64,000 bases of DNA from a virus (IMGVR_UViG_3300012988_000001:246414-310413); one strand, 5' to 3'; shown: positions 27,392-59,021, numbered from the stretch's first letter. A program made the numbers and translations. The notes: a model not told the origin generated them from the sequence alone.

Positions 27392-27420
27392 GGGACAAAC
27401 TAGTGAAAATGTGATATAAT
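27392..27420 (+). promoter_or_regulatory. class B promoter directly upstream of tRNA
   Basis: tgggacaaactagtgaaaatgtgatataat. The tRNA starts 9 nt after the -10. Confidence 0.65.
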
Positions 27421-27428
27421 ATAATTAC

Positions 27429-27518
27429 GGAAGGTTGGGTGAGTGGTTGAAACCAACGGTCTACTAAATCGTCATACGCGAAAGCGTATCGTGGGTTCGA
27501 ATCCCACATCTTCCGCCA
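27429..27518 (+). tRNA. tRNA, type II (Ser-like long variable arm). Anticodon loop reads CUACUAA (ACU?)
   Basis: Acceptor GGAAGGT/ATCTTCC, T-arm GTGGGTTCGAATCCCAC, CCA end, variable arm atacgc-gaaa-gcgtat. Anticodon assignment is uncertain. Confidence 0.65.
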
Positions 27519-27533
27519 CATTTATTTGAAAAT

Positions 27534-28082
27534 ATGAAACGCGAAATATATGAACTAAATCCTACAAGTTGTAAACATTGTGGGAACATAATACCATACA
27601 AGAAAGGTGTACAAGATAAAGTATTTTGTAATCTTTCATGTTCGGCTCAATACAATAATAATCAAAAATACCAAACTACCAAGATAGATAATATTTGCTT
27701 GGGATGTGGTGTATCTTTTACTACGAATAACAGACCTAGAAAATTCTGTTCGCATCTATGCTCAACTGAGTCAAAGAAGAACGAAAATATCAACCAGTGG
27801 AAATCTGGCGAACTCCAAGGATATAGCGGGAAAGCAAAACAGTTGAAACCGTGGATACGGAAGTATCTATTTGAAGTTCGAGGAACAGCTTGTTCGGAAT
27901 GTGGTTGGGATAAACGCCACCCAATGGATGGGGCAGTACTTACAGAAATCGATCATATCGATGGAAACGCCGAAAATTGTCATGAAGATAATTTGAGGAT
28001 TCTATGTCCAAACTGTCATAGTATGACAGAAACACACCGTGCTCGTAACAAGAATGGTACGAGAAATACACGATATAACTGA
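27534..28082 (+). CDS. HNH homing endonuclease
   Basis: C-terminal CSECGW...EIDHIDGNAENCHEDNLRILCPNCHSMT HNH motif plus N-terminal Cys-rich zinc fingers. Confidence 0.8.
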   Translation: MKREIYELNPTSCKHCGNIIPYKKGVQDKVFCNLSCSAQYNNNQKYQTTKIDNICLGCGVSFTTNNRPRKFCSHLCSTESKKNENINQWKSGELQGYSGKAKQLKPWIRKYLFEVRGTACSECGWDKRHPMDGAVLTEIDHIDGNAENCHEDNLRILCPNCHSMTETHRARNKNGTRNTRYN

Positions 28083-28092
28083 GGATTTAAAT

Positions 28093-29400
28093 ATGGGTAG
28101 CTTTAACGCATCATGTGCAGTAAGTCATTGTAGTATTAATCCGGGTGATCCAGTAAAATTGATCCCTATTGTAAGTAACACACCGATTCACGGTGAATAT
28201 AACGCAGACATGCATAAAGGCTTTTCATGTTATTGCCATGATCAGTTCAGTATGATTGGCTATCCTATGGATGCCACATATGAAGATTATGGTGATTTTG
28301 ATGTTAAAGAGGATATGTTCTCTGAATATAACCTAAGCATTATTCGAGACAAGTTCACGAAGAATGTCCCACCTGAAGATGAGAAAGATGATTACAGTTC
28401 AATTGCTGATAGCCGCAATGGTTACAGTCTTGAACCAGAAGATTTGGATTGGAGTAAAATAGGTGAAATGATCCATTTCGGTAATATGTATCTCGATAGT
28501 AATAAAGACCGCACTAAGCGTCGTTATATGGGATTCTTCCCAGTACACAAATGTGTATACGATCTATTGATGCAACGTAACCCAGAAATGCACTTTGATG
28601 ATTCATATGATAACGTTAATTTCCAACGTTTTCTAGAGAAAGCACTCAAAGACAATCCACCATCAACTACCAATAATCCGGTATTCGAAGAAGCTATTGT
28701 ACAATACATGGAACTCTTCGGTCCACTAATTGGTACTGAACTAAAAGACGGAACTATCATGACACCGGAAATGGCTCATGAGAAAGCTGTTGGTATGGCA
28801 GACCTAAAAGTGGAAATGGCTGAACTACGTGATAGTCATCGTCGTGAGTACTCATACGATAACACATCAAGTATCAAACGTTTCCTACGCTATCGTAAAG
28901 AAAACAAACTACCAGTACTCACTGATGAAGAACATATTGCACTAGTAACCCTAGACGCTGAATGTACTTATCTAATCCGTGGTTTGAATGATCTTCAAAT
29001 CCAACTTATCCCACCAATGACAGCGAGGCAAGAGTATGATAAGACTGATCACGCAACGTTCCTAGTAGCTTGTGGTAAAGCACTACTCGCTATGCAAGCA
29101 GTAAGTGATGAAGAACATTATGGTGATGATGAAGACGATGTAGAAAGCACTAAGGTAGTGGTTGAAGCAGAAATTCATGTATCACTAAATAACCTACGCG
29201 AATCGGCTCAACACGACTGGAAGCCAGAACGTGGAAAAGTAAAAGTTGACGCGATTGATCGTTTTGCGGTACAATACCCAGACGGCGTTACTCTAAGTGC
29301 TGGTGAAGTAATTTCACAGGGCTATGGAGTAATGCTAGTAAGTATGCCAAGTACTATCCTACCAATCGTGTTTAAAAACGATATCAAGGTAGAAGAATGA
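28093..29400 (+). CDS. hypothetical protein (435 aa)
   Basis: Start at the ATG following the HNH stop, with GAGGA RBS. Confidence 0.5.
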   Translation: MGSFNASCAVSHCSINPGDPVKLIPIVSNTPIHGEYNADMHKGFSCYCHDQFSMIGYPMDATYEDYGDFDVKEDMFSEYNLSIIRDKFTKNVPPEDEKDDYSSIADSRNGYSLEPEDLDWSKIGEMIHFGNMYLDSNKDRTKRRYMGFFPVHKCVYDLLMQRNPEMHFDDSYDNVNFQRFLEKALKDNPPSTTNNPVFEEAIVQYMELFGPLIGTELKDGTIMTPEMAHEKAVGMADLKVEMAELRDSHRREYSYDNTSSIKRFLRYRKENKLPVLTDEEHIALVTLDAECTYLIRGLNDLQIQLIPPMTARQEYDKTDHATFLVACGKALLAMQAVSDEEHYGDDEDDVESTKVVVEAEIHVSLNNLRESAQHDWKPERGKVKVDAIDRFAVQYPDGVTLSAGEVISQGYGVMLVSMPSTILPIVFKNDIKVEE

Positions 29401-29762
29401 CAGCACAAGAGCTAATCGAACGCTTACAACGCATGAAACCGGAAACGGAGATTGTAGTTGCAGTAAACGTACCATATGACTCAATTGGACCATCGCCTAG
29501 TGCGATGGTTACACAAGCCTTTAGTGGCTTTGATTGGGACAATGGAACACTACGTTTGAGTACTGAAGGAAACTTAGTGAAGTTCAATGATGAACAATTC
29601 GCAGCTTTCCAACAGATGAAAAAAGAAGCACGTAAAACTCGCAGTGATGCGTGGTACAAATTAGGCGGTCGAAACCTATCTTGGGAAGACTGCAAAGCAT
29701 TAGAAGAACAAATGGACAAAGATGTTCACCCTTTATTCAAGGGAAGTTATAACAAGGACTAA
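29397..29762 (+). CDS. ELI-family small protein (N-terminal ELIERLQRMKPETEIVVAV)
   Basis: Shares an N-terminal motif with ORFs at 42984, 45831 and 59042. Confidence 0.45.
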   Translation: MTAQELIERLQRMKPETEIVVAVNVPYDSIGPSPSAMVTQAFSGFDWDNGTLRLSTEGNLVKFNDEQFAAFQQMKKEARKTRSDAWYKLGGRNLSWEDCKALEEQMDKDVHPLFKGSYNKD

Positions 29763-29764
29763 CG

Positions 29765-57584: not shown

Positions 57585-57984
57585 AGAAATGTTTCAAAAT
57601 ATGCTATTTGATGCAGACTTCGAATTCGGCTTTGTAAGCGGTTCTAATTATAAGTTCTTCATCAAGGCGGCTGGCTATCGCATCACTTGGGATCGTTTGG
57701 CACATACTATCGAATTGCCATCCCTTGATGAAGCAGGTTCAGTACGAACGAATGCTAAATCTTCGCATGGCATGACTCCTGCACAAATGGTCAACCTATT
57801 AAAAGGTCAGTCAACTAAGCAGGAGTACTACATCCCTACTTCACAAGAAGACGAGTTCCAAGCTAGTACTGCTAGGGTTGGTAACATATTACCATTTGTG
57901 TTAGTAGAACATCTTGAACGCTTACTTAGTGTTGCACAGGAATGTATTTCTCGGTACTCAATTGATGAGAGGAAGTATAAATGA
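57556..57984 (+). CDS. FQ-motif family protein
   Basis: ...IPTSQEDEFQASTARVGNILPFVLVEHLERLL. Confidence 0.45.
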   Translation: MKIMENQKYKEMFQNMLFDADFEFGFVSGSNYKFFIKAAGYRITWDRLAHTIELPSLDEAGSVRTNAKSSHGMTPAQMVNLLKGQSTKQEYYIPTSQEDEFQASTARVGNILPFVLVEHLERLLSVAQECISRYSIDERKYK

Positions 57985-58241
57985 AAGATGCACACGGCAT
58001 TGAGATTACAGAAGGTTGTACTCTCATGTTCGCACAGCGTGAACCAGACAAATGGAATCCACGTGATATGATTTTCCGTAAAGTAGAGAAGATTGATCCC
58101 GCCTTTGGTGGTCGTATCATCTTTGAAGACAAAAACCAAAATAGCATTGCTTACAAGCAAAACATCACAACTCTCCGTGTAGTATCGGAAAGTTTTGTAA
58201 AGGCTTGGGAAAGTGGTGAATTGTTTATGAGGGAATTCTAA
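57981..58241 (+). CDS. hypothetical protein
   Basis: ORF. Confidence 0.4.
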   Translation: MKDAHGIEITEGCTLMFAQREPDKWNPRDMIFRKVEKIDPAFGGRIIFEDKNQNSIAYKQNITTLRVVSESFVKAWESGELFMREF

Positions 58242-58483
58242 TGAGTAATAAGTACTTTGTACGTTATAGTTACAATGTAACCAACAAGGTTCCACGTGGT
58301 GATGGTCTTGGTTGGGGTTATGAAACTGAACAAGTGACCGATTCTTGTGTATGTGAAATCGATCCAGAGCATATTGATATATCTGAAGTACGTCATACTG
58401 TACTTCGTTATGAACTCAATTATTTGGGTGAACGTAAACCAGATGCATATGATATTGATATTTTAGTACTGAATAAACTATGA
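58241..58483 (+). CDS. hypothetical protein
   Basis: ORF. Confidence 0.4.
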   Translation: MSNKYFVRYSYNVTNKVPRGDGLGWGYETEQVTDSCVCEIDPEHIDISEVRHTVLRYELNYLGERKPDAYDIDILVLNKL

Positions 58484-58653
58484 TTAACTATATCTTTCGT
58501 GTAAGGGGTAAAGGTATTGTTCCCGGATTGACAGTTGTTCGTGCGTACACTGCAACTGATGCTCGTGAAATGCTACTAGCTGAATTCAGCAAGCCCGAAG
58601 ACGTTACGATCACTTTGGTTGAATGTAGTCAAGAATTATCGTTTTTAAACTAG
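58483..58653 (+). CDS. small hypothetical protein (56 aa)
   Basis: ATGA overlap. Under 60 aa, so not in the ORF track. Confidence 0.3.
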   Translation: MNYIFRVRGKGIVPGLTVVRAYTATDAREMLLAEFSKPEDVTITLVECSQELSFLN

Positions 58654-58754
58654 GACATATTGCGTGATCTGGTTTTATCGTGTAGAATGAGGCTAAAATC
58701 ATTTGTAAATGCGTTAGAAGCGGAGTCGGGGTTGAATTCCCCGAATGTCCACCA
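58653..58754 (+). other. long (102 nt) tRNA-like element. It has acceptor GGACATA/AATGTCC, T-arm cggggttgaattccccg, CCA. An internal stem-loop aatga-ggctaaa-tcatt would present CUA
   Basis: Read directly. Too long for a standard tRNA and the D-arm is unclear. Confidence 0.3.
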
Positions 58755-58756
58755 CC

Positions 58757-58844
58757 GGGAGAGTGATGGAAAGGCATACATAGGCATCTCCAGTGTCTTA
58801 GTCTTGATGACAATGCAAGGTTCGAGTCCTTGTCTCTCCCACCA
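58757..58844 (+). other. tRNA-like element (acceptor GGGAGAG/CTCTCCC, T-arm caaggttcgagtccttg plus 1 nt, CCA)
   Basis: Read directly. The anticodon arm was not resolved. Confidence 0.3.
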
Positions 58845-58992
58845 AACAATAATACCTATCATCTAATATCAGTACTGGTGGCGTGTCGTCGAGGACGATG
58901 GACAGTACTGACAGGATACCTCGTTCGCCAGCAGTGGGTTCGGGGGATGTACGTAAAGTCGTGCTGGGTATGCCAAATTATTTAAAAAACTT

Positions 58993-59021
58993 GGGACAAA
59001 ACATGAATTTTGTCCTATAAT
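58993..59021 (+). promoter_or_regulatory. class B promoter with GGACAAAAC/GTTTTGTCC palindrome (near-duplicate of 30335)
   Basis: ttgggacaaaacatgaattttgtcctataat. Confidence 0.65.

Follow-up and report, generated by a model that had tools for sequence, protein, structure and literature searches.

A probable middle-type promoter class with a genus-specific -35 box in a Rak2-like jumbo phage

The phage and its GGGACA promoters

The 64,000-nt stretch of viral DNA IMGVR_UViG_3300012988_000001:246414-310413 (the whole of it is called "the window" below, and positions are counted from its first letter) carries eight copies of a promoter-like element in which a GGGACA-type box stands upstream of a consensus TATAAT. 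The genes of the window lie nearly all on the + strand, its G+C content is ~38%, and ARAGORN makes 14 tRNA calls in it. Judged from its sequence, the window is that of a Rak2-like jumbo myovirus. Its closest database relatives are the Salmonella phages Munch, 7t3, PHA46 and SE_PL and the Klebsiella phage fENko-Kae01, to which it is ~79% identical in nucleotide sequence across the topoisomerase region (94% at the protein level for the N-terminus of the topoisomerase), and it is syntenic with Munch ~240.5-297 kb. In the regions compared, no database record exceeds ~80% nucleotide identity to the window, which therefore comes from an unsequenced or uncatalogued relative.

The GGGACA-type promoters are referred to here as class B and the TTGACA-type promoters as class A. 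The pattern G(G/A)GACA-N17-TATAAT occurs at eight sites, on the + strand only: 2841, 22834, 27392, 30335, 50346, 52005, 52375 and 58993. Seven of these read GGGACA-N17-TATAAT, a pattern that is absent from the minus strand, and the remaining one, at 2841, reads GAGACA-N17-TATAAT. TATAAT is perfect at every site and the upstream box is exactly 17 bp away in all eight, much as a first-pass annotation of this DNA had described the class (GGGACA at -35, an exact 17-nt spacer). That annotation spoke of nine copies but listed only eight positions, and the range that it gave (27392-59021) excludes two of its own sites, 2841 and 22834; neither a position weight matrix (PWM) nor a relaxed regular expression, which adds no + strand site, finds a ninth in the window. 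Under the PWM, which was derived from them, the eight sites score 40-57 bits, and no other position of the window exceeds 12 bits on either strand; because of this gap the class is crisp, with no ninth copy.

Chance accounts poorly for these numbers. At a tolerance of one mismatch the window has 8 matches, as against 0.50 +/- 0.69 in 100 dinucleotide shuffles, none of which reaches 8. Half of the GGGACA hexamers on the + strand (7/14) have TATAAT at exactly 17 nt, as against 0/6 on the minus strand. The short sub-motifs GGGACAAAAC and TGTGATATAATA (with mismatches) are not enriched on their own; the signal is therefore their combination.

Six of the eight sites carry TGTGATATAAT, an extended -10 of the TGTGnTATAAT type with TG at -15/-14. 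The other two, 30335 and 58993, read TGTCCTATAAT and have no TG there, so that the extended -10 TGaTATAAT once ascribed to every site belongs to six of them. The ~30-nt motif first described has a real core but is part of a longer element: the consensus over 82 non-redundant sites (from the window, Munch and IMG/VR relatives) comprises an A-rich tract (-8..-4), c-T-T, GGGACAAA, N5, an A/T-rich segment and TGTGATATAATA. The conserved box element is ~11 bp long, cTTGGGACAAA, and GGGACAAA with its preceding TT is nearly invariant over the 82 sites. GGGACA and GAGACA match TTGACA at 4/6 positions, and it is the two most conserved T's that are replaced. Perfect-TTGACA promoters are also present in the window (nine sites on the + strand, none on the minus strand), and TATAAATA, the T4-type late -10, is found in 0/8 class-B sites.

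The eight sites and what they precede

All eight sites are either intergenic or overlap the final codons of the open reading frame (ORF) before them, and their orientation is that of the genes. An even spread through coding sequence had been named at the outset as an observation that would speak against promoters; instead, all eight are at gene boundaries and on the coding strand. The first-pass annotation also placed the class upstream of the topoisomerase gene, of tRNA genes or tRNA-HNH cassettes and of an ORF-free RNA region, and this is what is seen at 2841, 27392, 30335, 52375 and 22834.

The GAGACA variant at 2841..2869 (+; GAGACAAAGAAGCAAAAATGTGATATAAT) comes directly after a terminator hairpin and T-run (~2804-2840) and lies 39 nt upstream of the ORF for the topoisomerase II large subunit (2908-4881); this terminator-promoter block is 100% identical to its Munch counterpart, while the flanks diverge. 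The promoter at 22834..22862 (+; GGGACA-N17-TATAAT) overlaps the end of ORF 22348-22851 and stands upstream of the ORF-free structured RNA described below; its orthologues are Munch 262910 and a site in IMG/VR L007. The promoter at 27392..27420 (+) precedes tRNA-Ser (27429-27518), whose mature 5' end comes 8 nt after the end of the -10; behind the tRNA there is an HNH ORF (27534-28082). The Munch orthologue, 266617, likewise precedes tRNA-Ser, and the same placement of the -10 relative to the tRNA is repeated in Munch for tRNA-Ser and tRNA-Arg. The promoter at 30335..30363 (+), one of the two that read TGTCCTATAAT without TGn, is palindromic, with arms GGACAAAA at 30336-30343 and TTTTGTCC at 30350-30357; downstream of it come a 5' stem-loop (~30373-30413), tRNA-Thr (30512-30590) and an HNH ORF (30649-31326).

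The four remaining class-B promoters lie in the right-hand part of the window. That at 50346..50374 (+; orthologues Munch 286791 and IMG/VR L041) precedes a small ORF, 50458-50673. That at 52005..52033 (+; orthologue Munch 288449) overlaps the end of ORF 51506-52027 and precedes ORF 52065-52361. The promoter at 52375..52403 (+; orthologue Munch 288808) is followed by a 5' stem-loop (~52408-52457), tRNA-Ser (52632-52723) and ORF 52782-53159. The second palindromic promoter, 58993..59021 (+; arms 58994-59001 and 59008-59015), precedes ORF 59043-59258.

Some neighbouring features may be recorded here. Transcripts from 30335 and 52375 would start with long perfect stem-loops a few nt from the start, with a common first sequence, ATATAAGTAT; a Munch hairpin in a similar place, after the promoter at 196134, is annotated as a terminator. 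A second promoter-like site with a poor -35, TTTATG, is found between 30335 and tRNA-Thr (30438-30466, +; TGATATAAT) and is not of the GGGACA class. Just upstream of the promoter at 50346 there is a tRNA-like 3' end (GGGGGTTCGATTCCCTCC...CCA; 50299-50325, +) that received no ARAGORN call and has a faint match to the 3' end of tmRNA (10 bits, E 0.31); perhaps it is what remains of a tRNA, or else a tRNA-like element. Of the 14 ARAGORN calls, three fall below the gathering score of the Rfam tRNA model: 44815-44906, 55536-55621 and 58759-58844 (+). The first is called as a tRNA-Met of 92 nt, the second has a 4-base anticodon and the third is called as a tRNA-Gly of 86 nt; they may be unusual, intron-bearing or false. 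The sole sizeable minus-strand ORF of the window (44922-45764, 280 aa) directly follows tRNA-Arg and tRNA-Met; the remaining transcription is rightward.

Conservation and genome-wide use

The whole Munch genome served as the genome-wide reference for the class. All eight window sites have a positional orthologue there, and over the eight pairs sequence identity is 91% in the box region and 94% in the -10 block, as against 51% in the spacer, 65% in the upstream flank and 71% in the downstream flank: conserved boxes around a free spacer are the signature of two protein-contacted elements. Munch has 23 copies of GGGACA-N17-TATAAT, every one on the + strand. The tally rises to ~30, still confined to that strand, once variants with one base changed in the box are counted, so that the motif search proposed when the elements were first described returns eight sites in the window and ~30 in Munch, on one strand only. 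Taken from its other end, the element gives the same picture: TGTGATATAAT occurs 29 times on the + strand of Munch and 0 times on the minus strand, and a G(G/A)GA(C/T)(A/G) box stands 16-17 nt upstream of TATAAT in 28 of the 29. The distance from box to TATAAT is 17 at 23 Munch sites and 16 at three, with no other value. A scan of IMG/VR for the exact pattern yields 57 matches at 44 loci, nearly all of them in a few related jumbo contigs and on one strand per contig; a single contig of 359,777 bp holds ~26 class-B matches.

Given their sigma70-like geometry, their positions at gene starts, their strict strand bias and the conservation of boxes relative to spacer, the eight elements are almost certainly promoters. 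One could instead regard them as a dispersed repeat (a mobile-element end, a recombination or packaging signal, a homing-endonuclease target), as several sites flank tRNA-HNH cassettes and the palindromic copies are 34/36 identical. Yet only the two promoter boxes are conserved and the spacer is free, most Munch sites lie away from HNH genes, and in geometry, in orientation and in their distance from start codons and tRNA 5' ends the elements behave as promoters do; the chance that the elements are a repeat of this kind appears very small.

Class B is also, with high confidence, distinct from class A, as had been proposed for the TTGACA-N17-TATAAT promoters of the small-gene arrays. TGn is present in 29/30 class-B promoters of Munch versus 1/27 of class A. 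The class-A promoters of Munch (TTGACA-N16-18-TATAAT; 26 on the + strand, one on the minus strand) serve arrays of small hypothetical genes and also stand before the gene for an RpoD-like sigma. Class-B sites precede the genes for the anaerobic ribonucleotide reductase (nrdD), an ATPase, a Clp protease, primase, a restriction endonuclease and topoisomerase, as well as the DHFR operon and the gene immediately preceding that for DNA polymerase. Four tRNAs and five gaps without ORFs also lie behind such sites, and the site at Munch 176395 lies before the gene for a gp55-like late sigma (Munch_270). Replication, nucleotide metabolism, tRNAs and a late sigma: this gene content fits a separate temporal class of middle type. 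The separate temporal class suggested by the first reading is to that extent borne out, its timing being something that we infer from the genes served. A third class is represented in Munch by TATAAATA sites ~40 nt before structural and other genes. The sole TATAAATA of the window (6388-6395, +) lies 42 nt before ORF 6430-8817 and has a Munch orthologue at 247405, before gene 351; its sequence and position fit those of a T4-type late promoter, which in these phages is the third class.

A structured RNA family behind class-B promoters

The ORF-free region behind the promoter at 22834 (22871-23363, +) is one member of a family of ~500-nt structured RNAs and, in a profile search, the only copy in the window. 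In Munch, class-B promoters stand before five ORF-free gaps (at ~40.5, 100.1, 182.0, 262.9 and 316.4 kb), which are paralogous among themselves and to window 22860-23340; the Munch copies are L002:40538-41060, L048:152-684, L049:32025-32541, L051:12947-13445 and L052:16387-16838. The profile search found further copies in IMG/VR relatives and, in addition, one directly after the PBECO4 sigma gene (L060:1337-1530).

The RNAalifold structure of 13 copies has 70 pairs in 15 helices, with compensatory changes in 38/70 pairs. Pairing holds in 97.0% of the alignment cells, a share that drops to 40-48% if the 3' partners are displaced by 1-3 columns; covariation scores 0.511, as against 0.07-0.10 with displaced partners, and 0/500 shuffles reach the observed values. 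The window copy by itself folds with z = -3.7. Invariant blocks of the family include GCAGATGAAACCCG, CGGCAATGCGGC, GATAGACATATGAGG, CGACCGTTGCA and GAAACAGrGCAACCCGC. Nothing significant was found in Rfam for two paralogues of the ORF-free RNA, and nhmmer detected no homology of the family to the RNA-seq-defined non-coding RNAs 1, 2 and 4 of phage PA5oct, whose transcriptome is for that reason unusable for timing. By analogy, one possibility is that the RNA acts like the promoter-plus-R-loop origins of T4; another is that it is a large "ornate" phage RNA.

Relation to the published class: the box differs by genus

Three promoter classes have been predicted in phage CBB, the second and third of which are also seen in phage GAP32 (Buttimer 2017, PMC5259590). 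The first is RpoD-like (TTGACA with an UP element) and precedes small early-looking genes; the second, "divergent RpoD-like", combines a classic -10 with TGAAACG at -35 and lies mostly before DNA-synthesis genes and the gp55-like gene; the third consists of ATAAATA late promoters (PMC5259590). The second class is tabulated (Table S6) as TGAAAC(G/A)-N16-TATAAT with TGn, for instance TGAAACGTACCAAAATTTTATGGTATAAT, and one member precedes the gp55-like gene (PMC5259590). This "divergent RpoD-like / Promoter 1" class of CBB and GAP32 is a MEME prediction, presented with no assigned factor (PMC5259590; GAP32: Abbasifar 2014). The genome paper of RaK2 does not discuss promoters or sigma, those of fENko-Kae01 and Sharanji mention a sigma and no promoters, and a literature search found no report of the GGGACA form nor of a factor assigned to the class.

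The relation of the two becomes visible upstream of the topoisomerase gene, a region that was compared in the window, Munch and six other phages (121Q, EJP2, RaK2, GAP32, CBB and Yen9-04). The terminator-promoter module is present in all six of the others, and it is the box that changes: GAGACAAA (GAGACA) in 121Q, the window and Munch; GAGATAAC in EJP2; GAACAAAA (GAACAA) in RaK2; GAAACAAA (GAAACA), with a 16-bp spacer, in GAP32 and CBB; GGAACAAA (GGAACA) in Yen9-04. CBB-type boxes (TG(A/G)AA(C/T)-N16) number zero in Munch and in the window, and GGGACA does not occur among the CBB sequences seen. The TTGACA class, meanwhile, is unchanged in both the Munch and the CBB clades, and a class-B member stands before the gp55-like sigma gene in Munch and CBB alike.

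By these sequence comparisons the "divergent RpoD-like / Promoter 1" class of GAP32 and CBB and the class in the window are orthologous, the latter having a clade-specific box. The two share an orthologous position, with the same terminator-promoter module before the gene for the topoisomerase II large subunit; an architecture in which a box other than TTGACA is followed by a distally A/T-rich spacer and TGnTATAAT; targets in DNA synthesis and the gp55-like sigma gene; and the company of a TTGACA/UP class and an ATAAATA late class. They differ in the box and its spacing, (T)GGGACAAA with 17 bp in the window as against TGAAAC(G/A) with 16 bp, the intermediates GAGACA, GGAACA and GAACAA being found elsewhere, and in that the class of the window and Munch also drives tRNAs and the structured RNA family, targets unreported in the CBB paper. 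Since the class had already been predicted in related jumbo phages, its novelty is modest.

What reads the box?

If the -10 of class B is constant and its box is not, what reads the box? Dozens of dispersed sites have changed in concert, and therefore their trans-acting reader has changed. The hosts of these phages (Salmonella, Escherichia, Klebsiella, Cronobacter, Pectobacterium and Yersinia) are all Enterobacterales, in which sigma70 region 4.2 is highly conserved. Because the box drifts by genus while the TTGACA class and host sigma70 stay the same, the reader is quite probably encoded by the phage; the suggestion of a phage factor, already made in the first-pass annotation, gains its probability from this genus-specific, concerted change beside a constant TTGACA class. 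On balance, we favour a reading in which the eight sites form one class, the Munch-clade form of a middle-type class of Rak2-like phages, with a box read by a phage factor.

The simplest alternative dispenses with a phage factor altogether: the host sigma70 holoenzyme alone would use the sites, which would be ordinary extended -10 promoters of high strength, at work as soon as infection begins, and GGGACA would amount to no more than a 4/6 match to TTGACA. The perfect TATAAT, the 17-bp spacer, the retained GACA, the UP-like A tract and TRTGn (at 6/8 sites in the window and 29/30 in Munch) all speak for it. It has been established for E. coli extended -10 promoters (TGn/TRTGn) that any -35 is tolerated; TGTGnTATAAT matches the TRTGn and TATAAT consensus at six of the eight sites, yet the class-B box is nearly invariant and clade-specific, and two members have no TGn. 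An extended -10 needs no -35, yet GGGACAAA and its TT hardly vary in the 82-site set; the box has changed in concert at dozens of sites per genome, although the sigma70 of the hosts is essentially the same and TTGACA is kept in the other class; and the CBB box, TGAAAC, matches TTGACA at only 2/6 positions. Action by host sigma70 alone is thus an unlikely explanation of the class.

Which phage protein, then? As a working hypothesis, and tentatively, the RpoD-like sigma of these phages is put forward as the reader. In Munch it is the product of gene 487 (312310-313278), with Pfam regions 2 and 3 and best PDB matches to SigA/RpoD (2e-20). The gene lies directly behind a class-A-like promoter, TTGACA-N17-TATTAT (~312232-312309; L052:12232-12309). 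(Between that promoter and the start codon there is a hairpin and T-run, annotated as a terminator, that could be an attenuator or a 5' stabiliser.) An RpoD-like sigma is encoded in every Rak2-like genus, with 29-46% identity between genera as against 72-81% for the N-terminus of the topoisomerase. Aligned with E. coli sigma70, its region-4.2-like helix reads SSRTSLHRCYN in Munch, TNRCTIHRRYN in EJP2 and KSRSSIHRKYS in PBECO4, clades with G(G/A)GA(C/T) boxes, and TSKATLSRRYN, identically, in GAP32 (TGAAAC) and Yen9-04 (TGGAAC), clades with GrAAC boxes: the helix motif is SR..(L/I)HR with GrGAC and SKATLSRR with GrAAC. (The boxes of CBB and Yen9-04, TGAAAC and GGAAC, may resemble the -35 elements of extracytoplasmic function (ECF) sigmas.)

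A number of observations weigh against a phage sigma in this role, or against the wider reading to which it belongs. The link between helix and box spans ~5 lineages and is confounded by phylogeny. Pfam detects no region 4 in the phage sigma, and a PDB search with its C-terminal 79 aa matched no solved sigma domain. By synteny the gene would lie 12-15 kb past the right end of the window, so that its presence in this phage is assumed from the relatives. The -10, TGTGnTATAAT, is a textbook optimum for regions 2.4 and 3.0 of host sigma70, whereas the phage sigmas have no equivalents of W433/W434 and E458 and some, including that of Munch, also lack H455; their region 2.4 varies by genus (IRQ vs IYM) and the -10 does not. 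As a reader of the -10, host sigma70 accordingly fits better than the phage sigma, a point that also favours host sigma70 acting alone. With GACA and TGn in place, the host sigma70 holoenzyme alone would very likely fire the sites in vitro. Finally, a literature search for transcriptomes of this clade found none.

These points lead to a division of labour of the kind known from T4, whose middle promoters combine a MotA box, (a/t)(a/t)(a/t)TGCTTtA centred at -30, with a sigma70 -10 and are activated through sigma appropriation by AsiA and MotA. Applied to class B, sigma70 would read TGn and the -10, and a phage activator bound to the GGGACAAA box would replace region 4, perhaps with the help of an anti-sigma. 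The likeness to T4 middle promoters is considerable: a phage element takes the place of the -35 beside a strong, often extended sigma70-type -10, and the targets (replication, nucleotide metabolism, tRNAs) are those of an intermediate class, preceded by early sigma70 promoters and followed by late gp55 ones. An element of ~11 bp (cTTGGGACAAA) exceeds the usual -35 hexamer, and a sigma70-like -10 in all genera would be accounted for. The differences are that the 82-site consensus contains no MotA box, the GGGACAAA box instead being at -35, not -30, with rigid spacing, and that Rak2-like phages carry a full RpoD-like sigma, which T4 does not. Moreover, no candidate activator was identified; tblastn of Munch and the window found no MotA or AsiA homologue (best E 0.23, a weak negative given unverified query sequences); and the conserved RpoD-like sigma would be left without a promoter class. 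Sigma appropriation is a serious rival, though one of low probability, about as low as that of host sigma70 acting alone.

A phage sigma reading the class-B box would have its precedents in the sigma cascades of SPO1 (gp28 for middle genes, gp33/34 for late genes) and coliphage phiEco32 (gp36), in which both the -35 and the -10 depart from the host consensus. In those cascades an early, host-sigma-dependent gene encodes the phage sigma, which turns host core polymerase towards a second class of promoters. The Munch sigma gene likewise stands behind a TTGACA-type promoter; the -10 of class B, in contrast, is that of the host consensus, and the assignment of the Rak2-like sigma is hypothetical.

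Palindromic variants

The sites at 30335 and 58993 are identical at 34/36 positions and contain 8-nt arms, GGACAAAA and TTTTGTCC, 6 nt apart. They had been described from the first as near-identical copies with an inverted repeat, which they are; the perfect 9-nt palindrome then proposed, GGACAAAAC/GTTTTGTCC, is too long by a nucleotide in each arm. Relative to the consensus the change is mainly from TGTGA to TGTCC, together with a TTTT run, and it completes an inverted copy of the box and removes TGn. The Munch orthologues, 268945 (of 30335) and 293103 (of 58993), are non-palindromic, as is the orthologue of 58993 in IMG/VR L003, and the TGTCC variant appears at other loci, Munch 316349 and one IMG/VR contig (L070). 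A variant found at differing loci arises repeatedly and is lineage-specific, not conserved in place. Of the 7 IMG/VR loci with the palindromic variant, one (L070) is apparently a true relative, and the other six represent a conserved element that is unrelated; with one likely relative in seven, a conserved operator subclass is not supported. A terminator scan flags the palindromes on the minus strand, and this was rejected: the stems are weak (3 G-C pairs) and the genes there are all on the + strand.

Could the box, and above all the full GGACAAAA-N6-TTTTGTCC palindrome, be a repressor operator that shuts off or delays sigma70 extended -10 promoters? An inverted second box overlaps -17..-13 in two window sites, in Munch 316349 and in IMG/VR L070, the general consensus is already a partial palindrome (ACAAA...TTTGT), and a gene for a helix-turn-helix regulator adjoins the sigma gene in GAP32 and CBB. 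An operator, however, has no need of the exact 17-bp spacing kept at ~26/29 sites, most sites have a single half-site, and the palindromes are not kept at orthologous positions, all of which makes the box as operator decidedly improbable. As speculation, the additional, inverted box could take up a further copy of the reader and so provide feedback control.

Two TTGACA-N17-TATAAT promoters of the window, 41356-41384 and 42088-42116 (+), have G+C-rich inverted repeats that fill the spacer and end at the -10 (GGGGAG/CTCCCC and AGGGGAT/ATCCCCT); the layout is like that of the palindromic GGGACA variants, and the repeats may serve as operators, or else as terminator hairpins that overlap the promoter which follows.

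A proposed cascade and what it would mean

In the scheme proposed for a phage-read class B, each promoter joins an A-rich upstream tract to a cTT-GGGACAAA box, which stands exactly 17 bp from a perfect TATAAT; the distal part of the spacer is A/T-rich, and most members extend the -10 with TGTG. Host core RNA polymerase would start ~7 nt past the -10, and the transcription units would cover small ORFs, tRNA(-HNH) cassettes, the ~500-nt structured RNA and genes for replication and nucleotide metabolism. The box would be read by a phage specificity factor rather than by region 4 of host sigma70, the likeliest such factor being the phage RpoD-like sigma. One would then have a cascade from host sigma70 (the TTGACA class) through the phage sigma (the GGGACA class) to the gp55-like sigma (the TATAAATA class): with a class-B promoter before the gp55-like gene and a TTGACA promoter before the gene for the phage sigma, there would be three sigmas for three classes. 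In its most specific form, which is put forward with considerable doubt, cTTGGGACAAA would be the -35 of a fast-evolving phage sigma, box and region 4 would have co-evolved by genus, class B would be a middle regulon, and its inverted-box members (30335 and 58993) would be under feedback control.

Should host sigma70 alone turn out to suffice, the sites would be just strong extended -10 promoters and the finding routine. If the regulon is as proposed, it takes in replication genes, tRNAs, the gene for the gp55-like sigma and a previously undescribed family of ~500-nt RNAs with five copies per genome. The T4-related ("group 2") jumbo phages all encode an RpoD-like sigma, for which class B offers a testable candidate regulon. 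The consensus also lets transcription units be delimited in ~350-kb, mostly unannotated genomes, and flags cargo that would be co-expressed with the replication machinery: tRNA-HNH cassettes and a large structured RNA missed by annotation. One can think of a genus-specific box beside a constant host sigma70 as a natural specificity swap, in which the Munch box and the CBB box may be matched with their respective sigmas.

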